DNA of 31,402 bases from IMG/VR virus record IMGVR_UViG_2645727991_000019, positions 1 to 31,402 of that record. One strand, written 5' to 3'. Below are positions 6,664 to 28,060 of the stretch, in pieces; the first letter of the stretch is position 1; each line of letters opens with the position of its first letter. Both the position numbers and the translations under genes were made by a program. A model generated the notes under the pieces. It searched no databases. It was not told the origin of the DNA and worked only from the letters and a program-made list of their open reading frames with translations. The DNA comes from a virus. Its lineage: Duplodnaviria; Heunggongvirae; Uroviricota; Caudoviricetes.

Positions 6664-7257
6664 CTATTTGTCCCGGTTGGCTAAGGGATGACACAATTTA
6701 TTCTTTGTCGCTGATGAGGGGAATTTTTTATAGAGCGTGGACAGGCCAATATCAAAAATCAGCGCCACGCGTTGACGTGATTCACCCGCAGCCAGCAACC
6801 GTCCTGCCTGTTCCCACTCACTCGCGGTGAGCTTCGGACGTCTGCCACCAATACGACCTTTAGCTCTGGCCGCTTCCAGTCCGGCGCGTGTCCGCTCGAC
6901 AATGAGTTCTCGTTCCATTTCAGCCAGGGCACCCATCACATGAAAGAAAAAACGCCCCATCGGCGTGCTGGTATCAATAGCATCCGTCAGGCTGCGAAAA
7001 TTAACGCCGCGTTCGCGCAGTTCCTCAACCAGAATGACCAGATGCCGCATACTACGCCCCAGCCTGTCCAGCTTCCAGACCACCAGTGTATCCCCCTCCG
7101 ATAATGTCCTGAGCAGTTTTTTCAGTCCCGGTCGGTCGGACTTAGTGCCGCTGATTTTATCCTCAAAAATCAGCTCACATCCTGCGCACTCCAGCGCGTT
7201 ACGCTGCAATTCCGTGTTCTGGTCATTTGTTGACACGCGTACATAGCCAATAAGCAT
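6664..7257 (-). CDS. Serine site-specific DNA invertase (Hin/Gin/Cin/Pin family)
   Basis: From the Met at 7257 the protein starts MLIGYVRVSTNDQNTELQRNAL..., the canonical resolvase/invertase N-terminus with the catalytic Ser in the VRVST motif. A strong AGGGGGA Shine-Dalgarno sits 5 nt upstream of this ATG. It lies immediately outside the left crossover site of the invertible segment. Confidence 0.9.
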   Translation of the reverse strand: MLIGYVRVSTNDQNTELQRNALECAGCELIFEDKISGTKSDRPGLKKLLRTLSEGDTLVVWKLDRLGRSMRHLVILVEELRERGVNFRSLTDAIDTSTPMGRFFFHVMGALAEMERELIVERTRAGLEAARAKGRIGGRRPKLTASEWEQAGRLLAAGESRQRVALIFDIGLSTLYKKFPSSATKNKLCHPLANRDK

Positions 7258-7312
7258 GAGCATCCCCCTGAATAAAAACCGGAGATGATGCCAGTTGCCC
7301 GTTATCTCTGCA

Positions 7313-7338
7313 TTTTCATAAACGTTGGTTTAGGAGAA
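7313..7338. repeat. Left 26-bp inversion crossover site (hix/gix-like)
   Basis: TTTTCATAAACG-TT-GGTTTAGGAGAA is an imperfect palindrome with a central TT dinucleotide. Its right half-site matches 11 of 12 positions of the half-site at 9189..9214 in inverted orientation. Confidence 0.8.
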
Positions 7339-7836
7339 GGCTCAGCATTGCCTGTTGGCGTACCTGTTCCGTGGCCCTCAGCCACTCCGCCAACAGGCTG
7401 GCTGAAATGCAACGGAGCAGCTTTTTCTGCTGAAGAATACCCGGAACTGGCAAAGGCTTACCCGACAAATAAATTGCCTGATTTACGCGGTGAATTTATT
7501 CGTGGCTGGGATGACGGACGTGGTATGGATACGGGGAGGGCAATATTATCCGCTCAGGGCGATGCCATACGTAATATCTATGGTGAGTTCAAGACTGTAA
7601 ACACCGAAAATTATTCAATATGGGAATCAGTAGGCTCTTTTAAGGGGGCAGTGGTGCCTTTGAACCCCTCAACGAACAATAGTTATTTCTCCTTAATCAG
7701 AAGTATGGTGACAGAAAGAACAGATGGCGCTGTTTACCCAAAAGTGATTGGCCTTGATGCTTCAAGAATTGTTCCAACTGCAAACGAAAACCGTCCACGT
7801 AACATCGCCTTTAATTATATTGTGAGGGCTGCATAA
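7313..7836 (+). CDS. Silent alternative tail-fibre C-terminal cassette (Sv'-like, tail-collar motif); promoterless in this orientation
   Basis: The open frame continues in phase from the GLGE codons of the crossover site and encodes ...VPVPWPSATPPTGWLKCNGAAFSAEEYPELAKAYPTNKLPDLRGEFIRGWDDGRGMD..., the classic phage tail-collar motif of Mu S and P1 S variable fibre parts. The ORF-track start at 7285 precedes the crossover site and is probably not a real start. Confidence 0.8.
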
Positions 7837-8429
7837 TGAAACCTGTTTTTGATGAAAATGGGCTGGCTACAGTGCCGGGTGATATGCGTTGTTTTTATTA
7901 TGATGCAGTAACGTCTGAATATACGGGCTGGTCTGATGAATATATTAATACTGGCGTAAGTATGCCCGCCTGTTCCACTGGTATTGACCCGGGCGAATAC
8001 ATTCCGGGGAAAGTGGCAGTATTTACGGGTAAGGGATGGAGCCATGAAGAAGACCACCGCAATGAGACTGTTTACTCAATCGAAAATGGCGCAGCTGTTA
8101 CAGTGGATTATATCGGTGCCATCAAAGACGGTTATGTCACGCTTTCACCGTTAACGCCATACGATAAATGGGATGGTGAGAAATGGGTGACAGATACTGA
8201 GGCACAGCATAGTGCCGCACTAGACGCGGCAGAAGCACAGCGCCAGTCGCTGATTGATGCTGCAATGGCTTCCATCAGTCTGATTCAACTGAAATTACAG
8301 GCCGGGCGGAAGCTGACGCAGGCAGAAACAACCCGACTTAACGCCGTGCTGGATTATATTGACGCGGTGACGGTAACAGATACCAGCACTGCGCCGGATG
8401 TCATCTGGCCTGAACTGCCGGAGGCGTAG
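7836..8429 (+). CDS. Tail fibre assembly protein (chaperone for the silent cassette, U'-like)
   Basis: 197-aa ORF directly following the silent fibre cassette (the ATG overlaps its stop). Its C-terminal region (LDYIDAVTVTDTSTAPDVIWPELPEA) resembles the C-terminus of the opposite-strand tfa (LDYLDTLELVDTSGAPDIEWPTPP). Confidence 0.82.
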   Translation: MKPVFDENGLATVPGDMRCFYYDAVTSEYTGWSDEYINTGVSMPACSTGIDPGEYIPGKVAVFTGKGWSHEEDHRNETVYSIENGAAVTVDYIGAIKDGYVTLSPLTPYDKWDGEKWVTDTEAQHSAALDAAEAQRQSLIDAAMASISLIQLKLQAGRKLTQAETTRLNAVLDYIDAVTVTDTSTAPDVIWPELPEA

Positions 8430-8841
8430 GCCATTCAATATCTGGCGCACCGGAAGTATCGACCAGTTCCAGTGTGTCCAGATAATCCAGCCACAAATTA
8501 TATTGCGCCAGTTCCTCACCTTTCAGGCGACCAATCGCCGCTTTACCAGGCCATTGCTTACTGTTTATGTATTCGTTGACCTGATTAATCAATTGCTGCT
8601 TTTCCAGTTCGGCTGCGGCAATTTGTTCCTCATGAGTTGGCGGTGGAATATCAATCCATGCAGGCATTCCGTCGATGACACCTCTGTATTTTCCTTCTGG
8701 TGCTTCCTTCATAAATTCGGCGGCAACAGTGTCGTCAATTTCGATTCCATCATCGGGCCATTCGCCGGATTCCTGATAAGCGATTTTAAGCTCCACAGGG
8801 AAAAACGCATTTTTATCGGCACTGAAAATATATTTCTGCAT
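8401..8841 (-). CDS. Tail fibre assembly protein (chaperone for the currently expressed fibre, G/U-like)
   Basis: 146-aa ORF immediately downstream of H, converging on and overlapping the 3' end of the plus-strand tfa; it carries the conserved tfa C-terminal motif. Confidence 0.85.
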   Translation of the reverse strand: MQKYIFSADKNAFFPVELKIAYQESGEWPDDGIEIDDTVAAEFMKEAPEGKYRGVIDGMPAWIDIPPPTHEEQIAAAELEKQQLINQVNEYINSKQWPGKAAIGRLKGEELAQYNLWLDYLDTLELVDTSGAPDIEWPTPPAVQAR

Positions 8842-8843
8842 TT

Positions 8844-10028
8844 CTACCGTCCTATCGAAATATAACTGAATCTGTATTGCTGTGAGATATCACTGGTTGC
8901 CACACGCCACGCTGAATTACTGATATGTTCAAAATTTACAGACAAAACCTGCAGGGCAGGATTCGACGGGTCTGACTGAACGGCATCAGACATAACACTG
9001 ACTGAAACCATCGGCTGATTAGGGAATGGTATAGGGAAGTGTCCACTGATAAAGCGGGTCGTGTTTCCTGAAAAAGTGCCAAACTGAACAATATATCCAC
9101 CTGGTAGCCTGAACCATCCCGAACCAGAAGCGAATGCTCCCATATCCGGTATCTGATTATCTCCTGTGCCCACATCCCTTTTCGCCGCTTCTCCCAAACC
9201 AAGGTATGCGAGAAGACCAGCTACATCCTTTCCACTCAAATGAGTCAGCGTCTCATCCAGTGGCTGCTTACCTGACAGCGCATTGTTAATGGTGGCGCTG
9301 AATTTCGGGTCATTGTTGATAGCTGCGGCAATTTCTTTCAGTGTGTCCAGCGTGTCAGGGGCACCGTTAATCAGAGCGGTAATAGCGGCCTGTACAAACG
9401 CAGTGGTCGCAATCCGCGTGGTGTTATTTCCTGCGGCAGGCGTCGGCGCTTTTGGTTCTCCGGTAAATGTCGGATTATGTTTCTGTGCATACTGGGTATG
9501 AGGGTCCTGTGCGGCAATGTGGTTTCTCATCTGGTCATCCACATACAGCTTTAATTCCAGGACTTCATCATCCACGTATTTACGGGTCGCCAGTACCACC
9601 GACGGGTCGATTTTCAGCGTGATGGCTTCGGTATTCGTGACAACCAGAATCATGCGGATAGTCTGGGTACGACCGCTGCCTTCCTGCAACTGCGGTTTGT
9701 ACGTTTCCGGGCAGTTCGCCACCGCAATGAGTACGCCTTCATCATCATAAAGCCCAATCTCACGGATCCAGAATCCGCCCTCGTTCTCAGGGATGATTTG
9801 CTCCGCAATAATCTGGCTCTGGTTGTTCGGGTCAACACTCAGAAGATTCAGCGGCGCGATGCGTTTCTGGTTAATCAGTTTTGTCTGTGCCGGGTCTGGT
9901 GTCGGCAAGACACCATTCGCATCACCAACGGCCATTTGCGTCAGATTCAGCTTACTGCCGAGCATCGTCGCGTTAGCCAGCCGTGCTGCGCCCTGATTAG
10001 TCAGAATGGCGTAGTATTTCACTGTCAT
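8844..10028 (-). CDS. H: Tail fibre protein H (constant N-terminal part fused to the currently expressed variable C-terminal cassette)
   Basis: The N-terminus MTVKYYAILTNQGAARLANATMLGSKLNLTQMAVGDANGVLP... is the conserved P2-family fibre N-terminal domain. The reading frame passes through the crossover site at 9189..9214, where it encodes AYLGLGE, and continues into the variable part. Confidence 0.88.
   Translation of the reverse strand: MTVKYYAILTNQGAARLANATMLGSKLNLTQMAVGDANGVLPTPDPAQTKLINQKRIAPLNLLSVDPNNQSQIIAEQIIPENEGGFWIREIGLYDDEGVLIAVANCPETYKPQLQEGSGRTQTIRMILVVTNTEAITLKIDPSVVLATRKYVDDEVLELKLYVDDQMRNHIAAQDPHTQYAQKHNPTFTGEPKAPTPAAGNNTTRIATTAFVQAAITALINGAPDTLDTLKEIAAAINNDPKFSATINNALSGKQPLDETLTHLSGKDVAGLLAYLGLGEAAKRDVGTGDNQIPDMGAFASGSGWFRLPGGYIVQFGTFSGNTTRFISGHFPIPFPNQPMVSVSVMSDAVQSDPSNPALQVLSVNFEHISNSAWRVATSDISQQYRFSYISIGR
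9189..9214. repeat. Right 26-bp inversion crossover site (hix/gix-like) inside H
   Basis: TTCTCCCAAACC-AA-GGTATGCGAGAA; its left half-site resembles the gix/hix half-site consensus and is the inverted copy of the half-site at 7327..7338. Confidence 0.8.
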
Positions 10029-11889: not shown

Positions 11890-12521
11890 AGAGGTCCCCC
11901 TGTTGTGCCGCCACTGTCGCCGGGGTGTTTATGGGTATGCAGTACCTTACCGTTTGATGAGAGTTCACCGCCGGTGTGTTCAATGTTGCCGCGCATCGTC
12001 CCGCCCTTCTGTACTTCCAGCGTGCCGGTAATCAGCCTGTTGGTGCAGACCACCTCCGGTGTGTCCAGGGTGACGCGGGTTGACGCTTTCACCATGACCA
12101 CCGGCACCGTGGCGGTAACAGAATCAGAAGCCGTCACGCTGGCCGTTTTAATTCCGCTTACCGTCAGTGCACTGGTTTCGGGTTCATACTCAATCACCGC
12201 CCCGTCAGGGAAACGGATATGCAGGGCATCAGCCGACGCAGACGGCGCAGGGTTATCGCCGGAATAAATCCCCGGCAGAACAAACGCCGTGTCGAGTTCG
12301 CCGCCCACGGACAGAATCAGCACCTGTTCCCCCACGGAAGGTGCCCACCATGTGCGCGAACGCCCGGCGCGATGGGTCAGCCACTGAAGCCAGTCGGTGC
12401 ACATGCCGCCGGTCTGCACACGGCAGCGACCGGCGTTAAGGTCGGTTTCGACGACAAGGCCGGTACGAATCATGTTGCGCAGTGCGCGCGCGAGTTCCTG
12501 AATATTTGCGAGAGTGTTCAT
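11886..12521 (-). CDS. V: Baseplate spike/assembly protein V
   Basis: From the Met at 12521 the protein starts MNTLANIQELARALRNMIRTG... (211 aa), matching the P2 gpV N-terminus as I recall it. The longer ORF-track start at 12557 is probably not used. Confidence 0.88.
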   Translation of the reverse strand: MNTLANIQELARALRNMIRTGLVVETDLNAGRCRVQTGGMCTDWLQWLTHRAGRSRTWWAPSVGEQVLILSVGGELDTAFVLPGIYSGDNPAPSASADALHIRFPDGAVIEYEPETSALTVSGIKTASVTASDSVTATVPVVMVKASTRVTLDTPEVVCTNRLITGTLEVQKGGTMRGNIEHTGGELSSNGKVLHTHKHPGDSGGTTGGPL

Positions 12522-12598
12522 AACGGGAAGGATGCCGCTGGATGATACCAGCAGCAATCATGGAGGATTCTGTCAGCTGTGATACAACATAATAAATA

Positions 12599-13354
12599 TT
12601 AGTTGTAGCACTTCTCTATAATCTTCATACACTCCTCATGAGCTAAATCATGGCTGTCAAATTCTTTATTAAAAAAGAAGAAAAACGCCTTCTTAACCTG
12701 AGGCATTTCAATAAAAATAAATTCATCAACCTTATGAAAGAAATGAAAACTCTTGTTTGATGTTTCAAAAACCATCAAAGAATTATGTTTTTTATCCTTC
12801 CATTTCGACATCAGATTGCGTCGCGATTTTCTTATAATCCTGAAGACATCCTCCGGTGTCGTATCGACATTCCCCCAAAACATTGCAACCGGGAAGTTTG
12901 CAAGGAAAGGGATATAATCCCCCCCTTTATACCTGAGAAAGCGGGTCCGTAAATCCATTAATTGCAACTTAAAGCCCATGTATTGCAACCACCATATGAT
13001 GCAGTCATATTCATAATCTGTTAACTCATCGCCCCTCTTTTCCGTAAGAAATTTCTTCAGGTTATACTCAAACGCTCCCAGCAAATCAGAATTGCACACT
13101 CTGCATGCTGGTACAGTAGCTTTAATGTAATGAGTTGACTGATTATTCTTTTTATTAATTAAAGATTTTTCAGCATTTGACTCAAAGGCCCACTGAGGAA
13201 TAATGTGCTCACGAGTAATATCGTCAGAACTCCCGCATAACACACATATATCAGCATTATGGTCAGCAATAATACAATCCATAACTTTCTTTTGAGAATG
13301 CTTTACTCTTTTTCTCAAAATGGAAAACTTTTTATCCACAAACACCCGTCTCAT
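12599..13354 (-). CDS. AT-rich accessory gene encoding an HNH-motif nuclease-like protein, at the S-V junction (P2 orf30 position)
   Basis: The protein contains CVLCGSSDDITREHIIPQWAF ... CRVCNSDL, i.e. CxxC, (D/E)HIxPQ and CxxCN, the HNH beta-beta-alpha-metal signature (compare Cas9 HNH DHIVPQSF). GC content is markedly lower than in flanking genes. Its start ATG overlaps the S stop codon (ATGA). An alternative start at the internal Met (MDCIIADH..., 13282) is possible. Confidence 0.7.
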   Translation of the reverse strand: MRRVFVDKKFSILRKRVKHSQKKVMDCIIADHNADICVLCGSSDDITREHIIPQWAFESNAEKSLINKKNNQSTHYIKATVPACRVCNSDLLGAFEYNLKKFLTEKRGDELTDYEYDCIIWWLQYMGFKLQLMDLRTRFLRYKGGDYIPFLANFPVAMFWGNVDTTPEDVFRIIRKSRRNLMSKWKDKKHNSLMVFETSNKSFHFFHKVDEFIFIEMPQVKKAFFFFFNKEFDSHDLAHEECMKIIEKCYN

Positions 13355-13809
13355 ATAACATCTTTCGATAGAATCACTAATAACTCCCTTTCTATCAATT
13401 GTATAGATTCCTTGTCAAAACCAAATAACTCACGAACAGGATATTCCACCACAGCACTATTACGCCCCGGCTTATCCCTAAGCCCTAATTGATGTACTCG
13501 CGCAATTCGTTGTACTCCGCTGGCAAACGCCACCACCGCCGCACTCTCGCTACCTGTTGCTTTCATAAACCGGTTAGTGCGTAATTTCACAAACATTTCC
13601 CGCTTTATCCGGCCTTTCTTATTTCGTACTGGTTGGTTTTTTCTCGGTACATACGGCGTACCATCCGGGGCTTTTTGTAATTTAATTCGCTGCTGCTGGC
13701 GCTGGCGCAGCTTCTTCGCAATATCTACCGCCAGTCGCCGACGCCCTGACGGTGACAGCGACTCAATCAGTCCGGTCAGCCGGTCTTCAAAACGCTTAAA
13801 CTCATTCAT
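13351..13809 (-). CDS. S: Tail completion protein S
   Basis: The protein starts MNEFKRFEDRLTGLIESLSPSGRRRL..., and its position between R and V matches P2 gpS. The last 30-40 codons lie in AT-rich sequence continuous with the downstream accessory gene. Confidence 0.88.
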   Translation of the reverse strand: MNEFKRFEDRLTGLIESLSPSGRRRLAVDIAKKLRQRQQQRIKLQKAPDGTPYVPRKNQPVRNKKGRIKREMFVKLRTNRFMKATGSESAAVVAFASGVQRIARVHQLGLRDKPGRNSAVVEYPVRELFGFDKESIQLIERELLVILSKDVI

Positions 13810-22706: not shown

Positions 22707-22725
22707 GTGCTTTCCCCGCCTCGCC
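22707..22725. other. cos site (19-nt cohesive-end sequence of P2-type phages)
   Basis: The plus strand reads GTGCTTTCCCCGCCTCGCC, the reverse complement of GGCGAGGCGGGGAAAGCAC, which I recall as the P2 cohesive end. It sits where expected, next to Q. Confidence 0.75.
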
Positions 22726-23055
22726 CGCCCGCTTCATGGGGCGGTTTTGATGCAATACATGAGCATCGTAATGCCATATCGTGACAGGATTATAGAACAT
22801 GAAGGTATACTAACTTACACATGCAAAAAAACGCACACTCAGGCATTCTCTTTGGAATACAATATGGTAAAAATATGATCATTTGAAGCTGCATATCCGC
22901 GCAGATTGAAATCAATGATGCTGCCCCTTCGTTAAGACAGCCAGGCCGCAATCTCTTGAGCTCAAGTGGACATCTAAGACAGAAAAACAATTTAAAGGCA
23001 AAGTTTTCGTAATGGTATCTTTGTCACAGCACACGCTAAAAAGGAACTAAACCTC

Positions 23056-24120
23056 ATGAGCACTCAGCAAGTCCTCAACATCCCTACAGCCGTATCGCAA
23101 GCGACCATCGAAAAATGGTTGAAAGGACTGGAACAGACAACGGAATTAGCCTTTTTTCGCCGTGTTGGCGGGCGGCATGGCTTCAATGTTACGAGCCGCT
23201 GGGCAAGTACATTGGATAACTTGAATAAAACTCTGAATGACCCATCGAAGCAAGGTACGCCTGCAAACTTTTCAAATCTCCGTTTGATTACGTTAAAAAT
23301 AATCACTAGCGTAAACCATTATTATTCAATTGATAGTATTAAATCAGGAACCATTAATTTAATACCAAATATAATCAACTACCCTCACCTCGATAAAACA
23401 TTTAGCTCAGTATTTCCAATAAAACTTGATGATAATACAGGACTTCCTTCGACTCCTGGGCATTTCATTACTTCCATCGAAAAAATGGGGGATGGTATTG
23501 CTGTAATATATTCCTATATTATTTTAAGAAAAATCCAAGGAAGGAGTAAGCTACGTAGCAATCAATATCCAGAGCAGTACTTCAACACTGTTTTCATCCC
23601 TAATGATTTAAGCCGTATAGAATATCGGGTTGATAAATCACTAGGTAAAAGAGCGTCTGAAAAAGCGATGGCAGATTTGCGCGCAAAATTTAATGAATTA
23701 CTCGTGGAACTTAATATTAAGTTAGCTGTTGAAACTATAAATTTCTACAAAGCAATTTCCAATATTTACCTTGACAAACAATATGGAAGACTTGTTCAGG
23801 TTAATTTCCTTGATCCAAATGGAGATGAGGATGCTGTTCTTCGTTGTAGAACAGACCCCAATTATGATGCCCGTTATCGCGAGGTTGTATCTAAAACTCA
23901 GAACGGAACACCTCGCTCATTGACCCTTGAAGTTTCTGGCGTTGCAGTGCGATTAGATAGTAAAGTTGCAAACGAAACAATTTCAAATGAAATTGGTTTT
24001 GAACCCAGCAAAACTGATTGGTCTACAAACAAATTTTGTGGGGATTTTTATTTTACACAAACAGCAGATCATCAGGTGCATTATGGGGTGATAAATGATT
24101 TACTCACAAGAGCGAAATAA
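23056..24120 (+). CDS. Hypothetical protein, first gene of the low-GC cargo operon (354 aa); no family recognised
   Basis: ATG start with an AAGGA Shine-Dalgarno about 10 nt upstream. Composition is AT-rich, and I see no Walker or other recognisable motifs. Confidence 0.75.
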   Translation: MSTQQVLNIPTAVSQATIEKWLKGLEQTTELAFFRRVGGRHGFNVTSRWASTLDNLNKTLNDPSKQGTPANFSNLRLITLKIITSVNHYYSIDSIKSGTINLIPNIINYPHLDKTFSSVFPIKLDDNTGLPSTPGHFITSIEKMGDGIAVIYSYIILRKIQGRSKLRSNQYPEQYFNTVFIPNDLSRIEYRVDKSLGKRASEKAMADLRAKFNELLVELNIKLAVETINFYKAISNIYLDKQYGRLVQVNFLDPNGDEDAVLRCRTDPNYDARYREVVSKTQNGTPRSLTLEVSGVAVRLDSKVANETISNEIGFEPSKTDWSTNKFCGDFYFTQTADHQVHYGVINDLLTRAK

Positions 24121-24529
24121 AAAAATGCGCTCATTAGTGTATAAACAAAGAGTACTCCTGGAGAATGCCGGAAGCTCTTCTGTTTTCATAAATAATGATT
24201 CTCACATATATTATACAAATTTACTAGAATATGTAGAGGGTGATCTTGATCGTAATATTTATACAATCCCAGTATTACGAAAAGCCATAAAAACTGACAA
24301 TTATGAACATTTGCTACGAGTTGTTCAATTTTTTAGTAGCAATACCTCTTGTTTATTTAACGTTAAATATTGCTACGAACTAGAAAACATGGAGTTTGAG
24401 GACATACAAGCTGATGAATATACCAACTATATATTAAACGGAGTTGAACCTGTAACTGCCAATGGTTCTGAAATTGAAGACTTCAATCCAAAATATCTTT
24501 CATTTTATTGCATAATAAACCTGGATTGA
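24095..24529 (+). CDS. Hypothetical small protein, second gene of the cargo operon (144 aa, or 134 aa from the Met at 24125)
   Basis: ORF overlapping the end of gene 1 by 26 nt if it starts at 24095 (GGGGTG Shine-Dalgarno-like sequence upstream), or starting 4 nt after the gene 1 stop if it starts at 24125. It ends 5 nt before the gene 3 ATG. Confidence 0.65.
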   Translation: MIYSQERNKKMRSLVYKQRVLLENAGSSSVFINNDSHIYYTNLLEYVEGDLDRNIYTIPVLRKAIKTDNYEHLLRVVQFFSSNTSCLFNVKYCYELENMEFEDIQADEYTNYILNGVEPVTANGSEIEDFNPKYLSFYCIINLD

Positions 24530-24534
24530 CTGTC

Positions 24535-25389
24535 ATGAACAAACAACAAATCACATGTGAGTTAGGCAAAAGGGTTCATTTTGAAGATGAAGCGAGTTTT
24601 ATTGAAACATTATACTCGGATATAGAAGTCATAATAAAACTAATGGAGCAATCTAGTGACAAGTATTATTGTGATGATGAAGATAAACTAAGCCATACAA
24701 TTGTAGCCTCTCTTGTACACCTAGGTTACGATGCAACCGAACAAACAAAAAAAAATGGAAGTGTGGACATAACCGTTCGTCCGAAAAATGGAGGATATAC
24801 ATGGATTGCTGAAGCAAAAATCGGATACGGGAACCAAAAAATATTCGAGGGGCTACTTCAGTTGCTTACTCGCTATGTTAAAAGAGATAATCATGCAGGC
24901 ATGGTTATCTATTATCAAAAATCAAAGTCATCTTATCATTTCAAACAATGGCTGAAATACATATACAACCATGAGTGGAAGGATTATTGTACAAAGAAAG
25001 GGTCATTAAAAAAAGCGACTCCGCTACTTTCTCATTTAAAAAGTACGGTTTGTCCGAAAGTCAAACAAGGCTGTTGTTATGCTGACATTGATGTCATCCA
25101 ACCTTCGACTGATGGTCTAAAACTTCGCTGCTTCTATATTGACGTGCATCATGACCCAATTGACAGTAGTGGTTTAAAGAATAAGTCAATCGCCTTTGGT
25201 CAAGCCCAAAATAGAATTAGAGATTTATATCACTTATGGAAGACAGGACAGTTCGACGGCAGTATGATAGATGAATTATTTGAAGAAATAAAAATATATC
25301 ATAGCAATGAACTTGACGAAGAATATGAAGATGAAGATGAAGATGAAGATGAAGATGAAGATGAAGACTCGAATATAAACTCGAAATGA
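24535..25389 (+). CDS. Hypothetical protein with a PD-(D/E)xK-like nuclease core motif and an acidic (ED)n C-terminal tail, third gene of the cargo operon (284 aa)
   Basis: ATG at 24535 (the ORF-track start at 24508 is a TTG). The motif GSVDITV followed 12 residues later by WIAEAKIG fits a hydrophobic-D ... E-x-K restriction-endonuclease-fold signature. The C-terminus reads EEYEDEDEDEDEDEDEDSNINSK. Confidence 0.75.
   Translation: MNKQQITCELGKRVHFEDEASFIETLYSDIEVIIKLMEQSSDKYYCDDEDKLSHTIVASLVHLGYDATEQTKKNGSVDITVRPKNGGYTWIAEAKIGYGNQKIFEGLLQLLTRYVKRDNHAGMVIYYQKSKSSYHFKQWLKYIYNHEWKDYCTKKGSLKKATPLLSHLKSTVCPKVKQGCCYADIDVIQPSTDGLKLRCFYIDVHHDPIDSSGLKNKSIAFGQAQNRIRDLYHLWKTGQFDGSMIDELFEEIKIYHSNELDEEYEDEDEDEDEDEDEDSNINSK
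25327..25368 (+). repeat. Tandem hexanucleotide repeat (GAAGAT)6 plus GAAGAC, encoding the (ED)n tail
   Basis: Perfect tandem GAAGAT units are seen directly in the sequence at the 3' end of cargo gene 3. Confidence 0.9.
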
Positions 25390-25402
25390 ACACCAAGAAT
25401 CA

Positions 25403-25436
25403 CCCCATTAAGTTTAGACATCCTAACTTGATGGGG
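25403..25436. terminator. Putative bidirectional terminator hairpin between the convergent cargo operon and gene A
   Basis: CCCCATTAAGTT - 10-nt loop - AACTTGATGGGG forms a 12-bp stem with one mismatch, followed on the plus strand by AATTGACTTTT. Confidence 0.5.
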
Positions 25437-25524
25437 AATTGACTTTTAAGTCTGTAACCCTAGCCATCAAAAATAGATTCATTTTAAATAAAAATATATC
25501 CGTTACGCCCCAAAAAAAATTGAA

Positions 25525-27795
25525 TTAATTAGGAAAAACACTCCCAGTTGGAATTTTTTTAAATTTATATTTCCTCCCATCGAAACATACTGTCGCACCG
25601 CGTGCTAATACCTGTGGTTCCCATTGATTCGGCGTAATACCCTCCTGAGCCAACTCGAATCTTATACGTGGCGTCTGTTCCCGTTCAGCTTTTGTCATTC
25701 GTCCTGAGGGCGCTATCTGATAAGGTTTTAATGGCTCACAGCTCTTTTGCTGGCGATTTGGTCGTGGCGCATCGTGTTTTAGTGCGCATCTGAGCACCGT
25801 CACGACTTCAGGGTCATCCCAGCCGATAACCCCGCGCTCAATCAGATTCAACACCGCTGCTGCTTGCTCAGAAGGTATGGATGTCATAGCAGGATCGCCA
25901 CCGCTAGTTAGCTTTCCACAGTTATTGACAGGACTCCGAGGCGCGGCGATGCCGCTTTTTAAAGTCAAAGGCTCAACGACCGGAACTTTCGGCACAATGC
26001 GCCAGTCCGTCGTTCTGGTGATATGAATATGACGCGCGCCGAGATGCGGCGCGTAAATGCCGACCACTCTCTCGACTTCTTCCTCGTACTCGTTAACTTC
26101 ATCCGACGGACTACGGGCAACCCTGACAGTCTGACAATCGCGCGGAACATTTGCCCCACCCTGCGCGCTGATATACAACGCAAAATCACCACTGTCTGCG
26201 GCAGCGCGTGCAGCCTCGACGCGTTCGTCAAACTCATCAGCAATGCTGACGCCGCGAGGCAATTTGCGTAGTTCACGGTAAGCCCCCATTGTCGGCAGGC
26301 CAACCGTTTTAAATTGCGGAATGCGCCACGTTGATGCCCATGCGGTAACAGCCGCGGCAGTGTCTTTCAGCGGCCTGCCGGTATCGTTATCGAGCTGACC
26401 ATCCAGTGCATAGCCATCGATGTTTTTTGAGATGTATTTCGCGATATACCCCGCAGCACCGCCCCGGTTAAGGTGTTTTGCCTGAAAACGGTTTCGCGCA
26501 GCTCCTCTTTCGTCGCCATCCTCTTTGAGCGCGTAGCGACGCATGATTTCAATAATCTGGTTACGCTGGCGTGGATTACAAAAAAGCATCATATGCCAGT
26601 GCGGCGTTCCGTCGTGGTGTGGCTCGACGACACGCAAACCGTAGACCTGTAAATCATTATCCTTGAATGCCGTTCGCATCAGGCTCCAGATATGGCAGAG
26701 ATAACGCTGCGCATCCTTTGGATTAAATGCCTCATCGTTCCAGCCGTGATTTAGCTGGACGGTTTTACTTTCGCCTTTTCCGACCTGACGTGTCGGGTGA
26801 TACTTTGACGGCGCGGTCAGCGTGATAAACATCCCCACATCACCCTCTGCTGCGGCGTAACGCTCAATACCGGCAATGGTGTTCATCAGCTCCATCCGGC
26901 GAATTTCAGGATTAGAAATACTGCCCATCACCTTACTGATAAGGTCGATGCGCTCGCCGGTTTCCCTGTTTTCGAGATCACACGATTTAAGAAATTCCAG
27001 ATTTGCCTGGCGGCGTGCACGCACATCACGAATGGCATGTTTACTGGCATAAGGAGAACGGTCTTTATTGACCTCCCCGACAGCAATCAGTAACGCCTCA
27101 TGCCAGCGCATACGCTGGCCTTTGAGCTGATGAGTCCACCACTCATCGTTAAACAGACGGGCAATGGCAGAATATGCCTGCCTCGTGGTCATCTGTCCTT
27201 TACGGTATTTTTTCCAGTAAAGCGGGGAAATATTGAAAGCACGTGCAGCGCCAGCAACATGACCATAGAGGTGAGCCTGCGCCTCATCCGTAAACAGCGA
27301 TTCTTTTTCGCCATGTGCATCCACCCAGGCATCGCTGAGTTCCTCATACATCATGAAAAGCTGCGATGAGATACGGGCGGCAAACTTTTTCAGCTCCTTG
27401 TCATTCATTCCCGGCAGGCGCGCATAGTGGTCACGCTCTGCCAGAAACAGCAACGACGCGTCGGTGTTCATTTCATGGCGCTGATTCACACGCTCAATGC
27501 GCGGCCATAAACGACGCTGAAAAGTGGATGTGAGGAAATAAAACCCGTGCACCGGGCTTTTATTGCGCCGGATGTAGTCATAGCGTGAAGTAAACAGCGA
27601 GCGCAAAAAGTAAGGCAGGCGGTTAATCGTGGATAAAACACCTTGCACCTGACGCATCTCGTCACGTGTAAGGGGTCTTTCGCGCCCGACGGCCTCGCGT
27701 GGCGCGTTCCATGCATAAGCACCGGTAAACGTCTTACCGGTGCCTGCGGCAAATGCTGACGGAGGGACAAAACGCCCGGAGGCTTTAACGGCCAT
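25525..27795 (-). CDS. A: Replication initiation protein A (rolling-circle nickase)
   Basis: Large ORF; from the Met at 27795 the protein starts MAVKASGRFVPPSAFAAGTGK..., matching the P2 gpA N-terminus as I recall it. The ORF-track start at 27837 adds 14 residues and would overlap the upstream gene by 53 nt. Confidence 0.88.
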   Translation of the reverse strand: MAVKASGRFVPPSAFAAGTGKTFTGAYAWNAPREAVGRERPLTRDEMRQVQGVLSTINRLPYFLRSLFTSRYDYIRRNKSPVHGFYFLTSTFQRRLWPRIERVNQRHEMNTDASLLFLAERDHYARLPGMNDKELKKFAARISSQLFMMYEELSDAWVDAHGEKESLFTDEAQAHLYGHVAGAARAFNISPLYWKKYRKGQMTTRQAYSAIARLFNDEWWTHQLKGQRMRWHEALLIAVGEVNKDRSPYASKHAIRDVRARRQANLEFLKSCDLENRETGERIDLISKVMGSISNPEIRRMELMNTIAGIERYAAAEGDVGMFITLTAPSKYHPTRQVGKGESKTVQLNHGWNDEAFNPKDAQRYLCHIWSLMRTAFKDNDLQVYGLRVVEPHHDGTPHWHMMLFCNPRQRNQIIEIMRRYALKEDGDERGAARNRFQAKHLNRGGAAGYIAKYISKNIDGYALDGQLDNDTGRPLKDTAAAVTAWASTWRIPQFKTVGLPTMGAYRELRKLPRGVSIADEFDERVEAARAAADSGDFALYISAQGGANVPRDCQTVRVARSPSDEVNEYEEEVERVVGIYAPHLGARHIHITRTTDWRIVPKVPVVEPLTLKSGIAAPRSPVNNCGKLTSGGDPAMTSIPSEQAAAVLNLIERGVIGWDDPEVVTVLRCALKHDAPRPNRQQKSCEPLKPYQIAPSGRMTKAEREQTPRIRFELAQEGITPNQWEPQVLARGATVCFDGRKYKFKKIPTGSVFPN

Positions 27796-28060
27796 ATGAG
27801 CTAAAAGCCTCTGAACAACGCTTGCTGAGTTGCTCAACCTGCGCGTTTAAATCAGCAAAAGACTTTGCGCTTCCGGTAAGAATATCGTGATGCATCAGGC
27901 CGGAAACGAGCTGGCTTAATTTCGGGTAATAACCAACCACCGCCAGCCATTCCTGGCCGGCGTTTTTACCGCTTTCCGCTCTCTTTTTCTCGTGGAGAAT
28001 AAACTGAAAGCTGTCACTGGTAACGACATAACGTTCGCCAATTTCGATACGAATACTCAT
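27785..28060 (-). CDS. Early-operon hypothetical protein (position of P2 orf83)
   Basis: 91-aa ORF immediately upstream of A in the early operon. Confidence 0.6.
   Translation of the reverse strand: MSIRIEIGERYVVTSDSFQFILHEKKRAESGKNAGQEWLAVVGYYPKLSQLVSGLMHHDILTGSAKSFADLNAQVEQLSKRCSEAFSSYGR

Follow-up and report, generated by a model that had tools for sequence, protein, structure and literature searches.

In the window, by which we mean the whole 31,402-nt stretch of phage DNA analysed here, the interval from the P2 cos site to the 3' end of gene A is occupied by three tightly packed plus-strand genes, g1, g2 and g3. They encode proteins of 354, 144 and 284 residues, in agreement with the first-pass annotation. 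The features of the locus are listed below.

22707..22725, no strand assigned: P2-type cos sequence, exact string GTGCTTTCCCCGCCTCGCC, the conserved left edge of the hotspot
22754..22769, no strand assigned: left recombination boundary of the cargo, where similarity to P2-like prophages carrying different cargo stops (blastn, L013 and L014)
22852..22879, plus strand: best sigma-70-like promoter candidate for the operon, TTGGAA-16-TATGAT, 9/12 matches (consensus scan only)
23056-24120, plus strand: g1, ORF of 354 aa with ATG start; basic product, pI 9.1
24095-24529, plus strand: g2, ORF of 144 aa with ATG start; acidic product, pI 4.7
24535-25389, plus strand: g3, ORF of 284 aa with ATG start
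25325..25366, plus strand: (GAAGAT)n repeat (direct repeats D1 and D2), coding for the C-terminal poly-Glu/Asp tail of g3
25403..25436, plus strand: stable hairpin downstream of g3, in convergent orientation to gene A and possibly a terminator
25525..25569, minus strand: right boundary, formed by the 3' end of the replication gene A, which is exchanged along with the cargo (blastn, L013 and L014)

We take the string at 22707-22725 to be the reverse complement of the P2 cos sequence. On the opposite side, the gene A ORF spans 25525-27837, and homology to the other-cargo prophages resumes at 25569 for L013 and only at 25793 for L014 (blastn).

The starts of g1, g2 and g3 are identical in the RefSeq annotation of near-identical loci, and alternative starts are present at 24125 (ATG, yielding a g2 of 134 aa) and at 24508 (TTG, yielding a g3 of 293 aa). 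With its annotated start g2 overlaps g1 by 26 nt, while the start at 24125 would leave a 4-nt gap; the stop of g2 and the start of g3 are separated by 5 nt. The earlier description of both junctions as falling within a few nucleotides is thus accurate for g2/g3 and only loosely so for g1/g2. Overlapping or abutting ORFs are seen in all examined loci, suggesting that translation is coupled and that the three products are made in a fixed stoichiometry. Homologues with identities as low as 24-33% occur in the same order in many genomes and, judging from this sequence conservation, g1, g2 and g3 are real genes.

The AT-richness that had been noticed for the operon is clear, with a GC content of 0.359 (g1 0.378, g2 0.313, g3 0.354) as compared to 0.52-0.57 for the flanks (P 0.571, Q 0.527, A 0.524) and 0.517 for the whole window. 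The promoter candidate is located ~175 nt upstream of g1 and provides weak evidence for transcription from this point. Downstream of g3, the hairpin displays a stem of 12-14 bp, a loop of 10 nt and a folding energy of -20.5 kcal/mol (z = -3.4 versus shuffles). It had been proposed as the terminator that closes the unit against gene A; its stability is borne out, but it carries no canonical T-run and the terminator scan made no call there, since the loop exceeds 8 nt and the T-run is absent. It is plausible as a terminator, though not a textbook one. No Rfam families were identified in or around the operon.

None of the three proteins carries a Walker A motif, and no methyltransferase domain was found in them in Pfam and NCBIfam searches. 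The 19-residue Kyte-Doolittle maximum remains below 1.0 in g1, g2 and g3, indicating that they have no transmembrane segment.

Comparison across P2-like prophages showed that cargo is exchanged at the cos-to-A site, as anticipated: at the same place, other E. coli P2-like prophages harbor Panacea with DUF2975, or SIR2 with an ATPase. Of 5426 complete E. coli genomes, 1538 possess the flank formed by the end of Q and cos, but just 2 carry the cassette, or about 0.1% of the genomes with this flank. The g1 family is also sparse, counting only 27 representatives among 1.84 billion. In strain ZH177, a prophage in advanced decay still carries the intact trio.

The old and tin genes, as well as other cargoes from the P2 hotspot, have been shown to be anti-phage, and in the same work five of eight further cloned hotspot loci besides old-tin gave no defence against an eight-phage panel (Rousset 2022, PMC9122126). 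As an argument for defence, location at this hotspot is suggestive and not sufficient alone. The exact accessions of the cassette appear in Table S5 of Rousset et al. 2022 as a 'hypothetical + hypothetical + hypothetical' P2-hotspot locus that was not assayed there, and it is not among the other P2/P4 loci tested in that study. The locus has thus not gone wholly unnoticed, and its rarity may explain why it was listed but passed over in large screens. Profile searches against Pfam, NCBIfam and PADLOC placed the cassette in no named family, in keeping with the earlier suggestion of an undescribed system. In the literature searched, we found neither a mention of the cassette accessions nor protection or toxicity data for the cassette.

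Gene order and homology of the trio are preserved in every examined locus (more than 20), in Enterobacterales, Aeromonas, Pseudoalteromonas and Photobacterium. Across 20 fetched loci, the genes occur in P2-like phages of Enterobacter and Rahnella, in a P4-like satellite of Rouxiella, at the int ends of lambdoid prophages in Citrobacter and E. coli, in an Aeromonas integrase island and, in Pseudoalteromonas, in a plain chromosomal setting. Integrase islands carrying the trio adjoin type I, type II and type IV restriction systems; examples of such neighborhoods are a Citrobacter island next to EcoRII R-M, an island next to an AspBHI-like type IV enzyme, and a Photobacterium locus next to type I R-M. 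Among IMG/VR viral contigs, the trio is present in 11 of 11, and lies between Q and A in 10 of these. The cassette thus recurs in hotspots and islands on diverse mobile elements, a generic mark of defence systems, and moves as a single unit among unrelated mobile-element hotspots.

The presence of the same trio at many kinds of locus, together with a predicted nuclease gene, is also what one would expect of a selfish cassette that spreads by nuclease-driven homing rather than through a benefit to its host. We regard this as very improbable. The cargo shows no target duplication and is not flanked by direct or inverted repeats of the sort that would point to a transposon or an integron-like cassette. 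Like those of other hotspot cargo, its boundaries fall on the recombination flanks that are conserved in each host element, and three strictly co-conserved genes exceed the needs of a homing endonuclease.

The monomer structure predicted for g1 adopts the RdgC/RexA/Iml3-Chl4 fold, with the two-domain arrangement of the RdgC/Iml3/Chl4 type. At the sequence level, g1 belongs to neither the RdgC nor the Rex family: the Pfam RdgC model (PF04381) matches 0 of 23 g1 family members at E<=1, hhalign returns a probability of 0.2% against E. coli RdgC and likewise 0.2% for g1 (A1) against lambda RexA, and PADLOC gives no Rex match. Profile searches of Pfam, NCBIfam, PADLOC and PHROGs assign g1 to no family. 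A sequence-profile search of the g1 alignment against the PDB gave nothing meaningful, and the weak matches in BFVD are to phage proteins labelled 'exonuclease' or 'recombination-associated protein'. DNA binding by known RdgC-fold proteins is non-specific, and RdgC of E. coli acts as a modulator of RecA and of replication restart (PMC11077077). We predict that g1 is a DNA-binding sensor or clamp.

The activities of E. coli RdgC, and the labels of the BFVD matches, would also suit an accessory module in which an RdgC-like modulator of RecA or replication restart works with a structure-specific nuclease in the life cycle of the element itself. This appears unlikely to us: the cassette is dispensable cargo, given its scarcity among E. 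coli genomes with the Q-cos flank, it is AT-rich and exchanged against defence genes, and it is also found in non-replicative islands adjoining R-M systems and on plain chromosome, which is unexpected for element-specific replication.

For g3, the predicted fold is that of a restriction endonuclease of the BamHI/BglII type, with HamA and SduA among the fold matches. The model displays the alpha-beta-beta-beta-alpha-beta core of PD-(D/E)xK enzymes with D...(D/E)xK on strands 2 and 3, and the E-D-ExK-Q pattern is invariant in g3 homologues. The protein also carries a conserved C-terminal domain, in which P208, D210 and S212 are invariant. The acidic tail that follows is variable: its repeat length differs between strains, giving a g3 of 284 aa here, 286 aa in ZH177 and 280 aa in A23, and in distant homologues the tail is missing or different. 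By sequence profile, g3 matches only phrog_9664 (of unknown function), part of PDC-S54 and, weakly, PDDEXK_9/Mrr_cat; DUF4263, the mark of Shedu, is absent from it, and its alignment gave nothing meaningful against the PDB. The PDC-S54 match, the only PADLOC match of the cassette, aligns g3 residues 13-147 with profile positions 230-369 of 410 (E 2.8e-7), pointing to a nuclease domain common to the two. We predict that g3 is a metal-dependent PD-(D/E)xK nuclease and the effector of the cassette. What had been recorded as an operon of unknown function can hence be sharpened to a predicted RdgC-fold DNA binder (g1) accompanied by a predicted PD-(D/E)xK nuclease (g3).

Such a pair could act in direct restriction, possibly modification-dependent as in type IV systems, with g1 recognizing modified or foreign DNA and recruiting g3 as a first-line activity that is neither licensed nor abortive. 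We consider this rather unlikely, in view of the lack of an McrB-like NTPase, of the fact that no SRA/YTH-type reader of modified bases is recognizable in g1 or g2, and of the non-specific DNA binding of known RdgC-fold members. Direct restriction would still be defence, by another mechanism.

The product of g2 is homologous in all contexts (24-49% identity), is always encoded between g1 and g3, and has a pI of 4.4-5.1 in 8 of 8 computed loci. Profile searches of Pfam, PADLOC, NCBIfam and PHROGs yielded no match. We predict that it serves as an adaptor or an inhibitor, which is a guess since g2 has no detectable named homologue or fold assignment.

An acidic g2 could also be the antitoxin to a toxic g3 in an addiction module, with g1 as DNA-binding regulator or chaperone; stabilization of the element would then come first, and defence second. 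We give this limited credence. With 354 aa, g1 is the largest and best conserved of the three proteins and is lost in none of the more than 20 loci, which is unusual for a mere regulator, and neither g2 nor g1 shows a detectable HTH or known antitoxin domain. The two readings overlap, however, since many toxin-antitoxin systems are defence systems.

On balance, we consider it somewhat probable that the cassette is a self-contained three-gene anti-phage (superinfection-exclusion) system, carried as lysogenic-conversion cargo in the tin/old hotspot of P2. In this superinfection-exclusion system, g1 would be the sensor or targeting subunit, forming a dimeric ring or horseshoe with sequence-independent binding to DNA, and g3 would be a Mg-dependent DNA nuclease of restriction-endonuclease fold that acts as effector. 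The co-translated g2 may couple g1 to g3 as an adaptor, or inhibit the nuclease so that it stays silent as long as the lysogen is uninfected. As the cassette encodes no methyltransferase, NTPase or membrane protein, self and non-self are probably distinguished by the state of the DNA and not by its sequence. Candidate signals would be free ends, intermediates of replication or recombination, or a complex of phage protein and DNA like the one suggested for lambda RexA. After licensing, g3 would cleave the incoming DNA and, if non-discriminating, that of the host as well, leading to abortive infection.

A more specific proposal, which we hold only tentatively, is that the cassette represents a previously unnamed class of immunity, in which an RdgC-type DNA ring or clamp is the infection sensor and reads the physical state of incoming or replicating phage DNA, the acidic adaptor then licensing a restriction-fold nuclease with neither a methylation mark nor NTP hydrolysis. 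If so, it would be a soluble, nuclease-armed counterpart of lambda Rex, and the RdgC/RexA fold might be a recurrent immune DNA sensor; besides RexA, we found no RdgC-fold defence proteins in the literature searched. Should the cassette defend, it would be a compact (~2.3 kb), NTPase-free addition to the anti-phage repertoire and a second, independent tie between the RdgC/RexA fold and phage exclusion, and would bear on the long-standing question of what is sensed by RexA-type proteins. The cassette also illustrates how a single module passes among P2-like phages, a P4-like satellite, lambdoid prophages and chromosomal islands in four orders of Gammaproteobacteria. It is in addition a well-delimited, clonable candidate with clear catalytic residues.

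Several known systems were compared to the cassette and set aside. Rst_3HP of E. coli E1114 was the first suspicion, since Rousset 2022 validated it as a three-gene cassette with no clear domains from the same hotspot, protective against P1. Both consist of three hypothetical-protein genes, but the Rst_3HP proteins are unrelated, with no significant blastp or profile match for any pair, and differ in size (333, 359 and 227 aa). P2 Old and Tin sit at this very locus, share the orientation of the cassette with respect to gene A and are AT-rich as well. Old, however, is an ATPase-Toprim nuclease, and was rejected on the lack of a Walker A motif, as in the first-pass annotation, and on the lack of any PADLOC or Pfam match to OLD, AAA_15/21 or Toprim; Tin, from Rousset Table S2A, gave only chance-level matches in blastp and hmmsearch. 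Crouga, Bandua, Aernus, Toga, Reve and Hailong (2026 P2/P4 preprint) have different compositions. R-M systems of types I-III were discarded because the three-gene cassette includes no methyltransferase.

The type IIP group of BamHI, BglII, BstYI and OkrAI is about 10-12% identical to g3, which differs in having no cognate methyltransferase, an extra C-terminal domain and two obligate partner genes. PDC-S54, for which no describing paper was found in the literature searched, is a single protein of 410 positions and has no counterpart of g1 or g2; its C-terminal third alone matches g3, and full-length membership was rejected. The KELA/KELB pair of KELShedu (10.1101/2025.09.13.674623; KELA is a 12.6 kDa WYL-like protein), HamA/HamB of Hachiman, and Shedu follow the logic proposed for the cassette, in that a non-specific DNA-binding or DNA-sensing partner controls a PD-(D/E)xK effector. 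In contrast to these, the cassette comprises three genes, has no DUF4263 in g3, no helicase, other partners and no matches to them in PADLOC; KELShedu itself was rejected since its proteins and domains differ.

E. coli RdgC, a nucleoid- and recombination-associated ring protein with 9% identity to g1 and no profile-level similarity, is encoded by a stand-alone housekeeping gene, whereas g1 is part of a nuclease operon on mobile elements. The likeness to lambda Rex lies in a sensor with the predicted RdgC/Iml3/Chl4-type two-domain fold. Rex employs the membrane effector RexB, for which the cassette, devoid of hydrophobic segments, has no equivalent; its effector is instead a predicted soluble PD-(D/E)xK nuclease, accompanied by an additional small acidic protein.

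The interval between the P2-type cos sequence, which we take to lie at 22707-22725, and the stop codon of the replication gene A holds three plus-strand ORFs, g1 (encoding a predicted RdgC/RexA-fold DNA-binding sensor), g2 (a small acidic protein) and g3 (a PD-(D/E)xK nuclease, the predicted effector):

23056-24120, plus strand: g1, ORF of 354 aa
24095-24529, plus strand: g2, ORF of 144 aa
24535-25389, plus strand: g3, ORF of 284 aa
25403-25436, 3' of g3: stable hairpin (-20.5 kcal/mol, z -3.4)
25525-27837, minus strand: ORF of gene A, whose stop codon is the right limit of the interval

The starts of g1, g2 and g3 are identical to those in the RefSeq annotation of two near-identical E. coli loci, and the GC content of the operon is 0.359, versus 0.571 for the terminase gene P, 0.527 for the portal gene Q, 0.524 for A and 0.517 for the whole window. 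The low-GC, three-gene operon proposed in the first-pass annotation is thus confirmed. Its tight packing holds for g2 and g3, which lie 5 nt apart, with the small correction of a 26-nt overlap between g1 and g2; the hairpin terminator that had been placed after g3 is indeed a stable hairpin, but it has no T-run and escaped the terminator scan. The claim that the proteins lack a Walker A motif was borne out for all three, and no hydrophobic segment was found in any of them.

The g2 protein, which had no family match in profile searches of Pfam, NCBIfam, PADLOC and PHROGs, is acidic in all eight loci for which a pI was computed (4.4-5.1) and ends in a C-terminal region with the conserved motif G-x-E-I-x-D-F...L-S-F-Y-C. 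At 25325-25366, a (GAAGAT)n repeat codes for the acidic tail of g3; its copy number varies among otherwise 99% identical loci, so that the product measures 280, 284 or 286 aa. This length variation looks slippage-driven, and the tail is possibly regulatory.

Two other regions of the phage were noted, 6664-10028 (GC 0.44-0.47) and a second low-GC island at 12400-13800 (0.38-0.44):

6664-7263, minus strand: serine recombinase (Resolvase and HTH_7, E 2e-52)
7285-7836, plus strand: phage tail Collar domain ORF, adjoining the recombinase
7836-8429, plus strand: tail-fibre assembly domain ORF
8401-8841, minus strand: tail-fibre assembly gene
8844-10028, minus strand: tail fibre gene
12599-13354, minus strand: 251-aa ORF between baseplate V-like and S-like genes (P2 orf30 position)

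In the first region, the two minus-strand tail-fibre genes face the plus-strand Collar and assembly ORFs, and the whole resembles an invertible host-range switch of the Cin/Gin type, here in a P2-like phage. The 251-aa ORF, with a weak HNH_5 match (E 0.008) as its sole hit and no PADLOC match, may be another small cargo gene.

The g1 family is small: a word-indexed search gave 24 clusters, and an exhaustive profile search gave only 27 representatives among 1.84 billion. The g3 family is broader; of the three, g2 is the fastest-diverging. In every context that was looked up, chosen from diverse family members, proteins of approximately 350, 140 and 270 aa occur in the same order, encoded by overlapping or abutting ORFs and all homologous to those of the window (26-66% identity for g1, 24-49% for g2, 32-60% for g3). 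These contexts are the Q-to-A interval of Enterobacter and Rahnella P2-like prophages, lambdoid prophages of Citrobacter and E. coli (at the integrase end), a P4-like satellite of Rouxiella with primase and Ogr/Delta, integrase islands of Aeromonas and of Citrobacter, the latter adjoining EcoRII restriction-modification, a chromosomal site in Pseudoalteromonas, an island with an AspBHI-like type IV enzyme downstream of the trio, and, in Photobacterium, a locus immediately preceded by a type I R-M system and a GmrSD fragment. In IMG/VR, the trio is present on 11 viral contigs, intact in all 11 and located between the portal and A genes in 10, with identity to the window's genes as low as 45% (portal) and 33% (A). 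Such a combination, in which strictly linked genes hop among mobile-element hotspots that are unrelated and lie next to restriction systems, is the genomic signature that defence systems usually show. The cautious defence-cargo interpretation made initially is supported and sharpened, and stays a candidate.

The cos-to-A hotspot was defined by Rousset et al. 2022, who demonstrated that old-tin and three further cargoes confer defence (PMC9122126). That it is a variable cargo site, as had been proposed, is confirmed by other P2-like prophages, which hold Panacea and DUF2975 or SIR2 and ATP-binding genes at this position. Homology with prophages carrying other cargo stops at 22754-22769 and restarts only at 25569 or 25793, indicating that the last codons of A are swapped along with the cargo; the right recombination boundary therefore lies inside A (25525-25793), 45 to 270 nt upstream of its stop depending on the comparator, and the C-terminus of the A replication endonuclease is exchanged. 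Additional genes accompany the trio in Enterobacter P2-like phages (two small ORFs of 102 and 119 aa on its 3' side; L002/L003, 10472-11143) and in Rahnella (DUF8093, DUF4926 and an FRG-domain gene; L005, 5754-7486 and 10431-11204), so the hotspot is able to stack several cargo units. One trio-bearing Enterobacter P2-like prophage also carries two DNA methyltransferases (DNA_methylase and MethyltransfD12; L003, 13681-15741) in the early region adjoining A, which may be anti-restriction or epigenetic cargo.

A stretch of 496 nt spanning the end of Q and cos is present, at a coverage of at least 80%, in 1538 of 5426 complete E. coli genomes, and the cargo in only two, ZH177 and A23, at the yegR attachment site in both. 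The ZH177 prophage (NZ_CM125652.1, 1824350-1839152) is decayed, with truncated V, P, A and transcriptional-regulator genes; its trio is intact (99.5% identity), consistent with the cargo having been kept under selection after the prophage died. A recombination accessory serving the carrying element itself, or a self-mobilising nuclease cassette, fits poorly with a cargo that is rare and dispensable, that also occurs in non-phage islands adjoining R-M systems, and that is not flanked by repeats.

None of the three proteins is a methyltransferase, an NTPase or a membrane protein, which favours nuclease-effector immunity and argues for discrimination by DNA state or by a phage protein-DNA complex, and not by a methylation mark. 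We also considered a type IV-like restriction complex, and a toxin-antitoxin or addiction module in which g3 would be the toxin and g2 the antitoxin. In nuclease-effector immunity, g2, and perhaps also the acidic tail of g3, would occupy the nuclease, or the surface through which g1 would bind DNA, until infection occurs, and the outcome would be direct restriction or abortive infection.

Old, Tin, Rst_3HP, Rex, Shedu and R-M systems were each rejected by their own membership test, and the cassette is not a full match to the candidate PDC-S54. The searchable literature mentions neither the cassette accessions nor PDC-S54, and no RdgC-fold defence protein apart from RexA; systems newly named in P4 and P2 hotspots (2026 preprint) differ in composition. 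The initial description of the system as undescribed stands in that it is unnamed, but the same accessions (WP_004016844, WP_024166900, WP_004016846) are catalogued as 'hypothetical + hypothetical + hypothetical' loci in Table S5 of Rousset et al. 2022, and are absent from the loci cloned in that work (PMC9122126). We thus regard the cassette as a candidate unnamed but catalogued three-gene system, for which very recent naming is possible. Hotspot candidates of this kind are numerous; this one is clean and clonable, and its sensor fold is of interest. By analogy, lambda RexA would be the nearest functional counterpart of g1, and the closest parallels in overall logic would be systems such as KELShedu or Hachiman, which pair a DNA-binding partner with a PD-(D/E)xK nuclease. 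We class the cassette as a candidate nuclease-effector defence of a prophage hotspot, its sensor having a fold of the Rex type.
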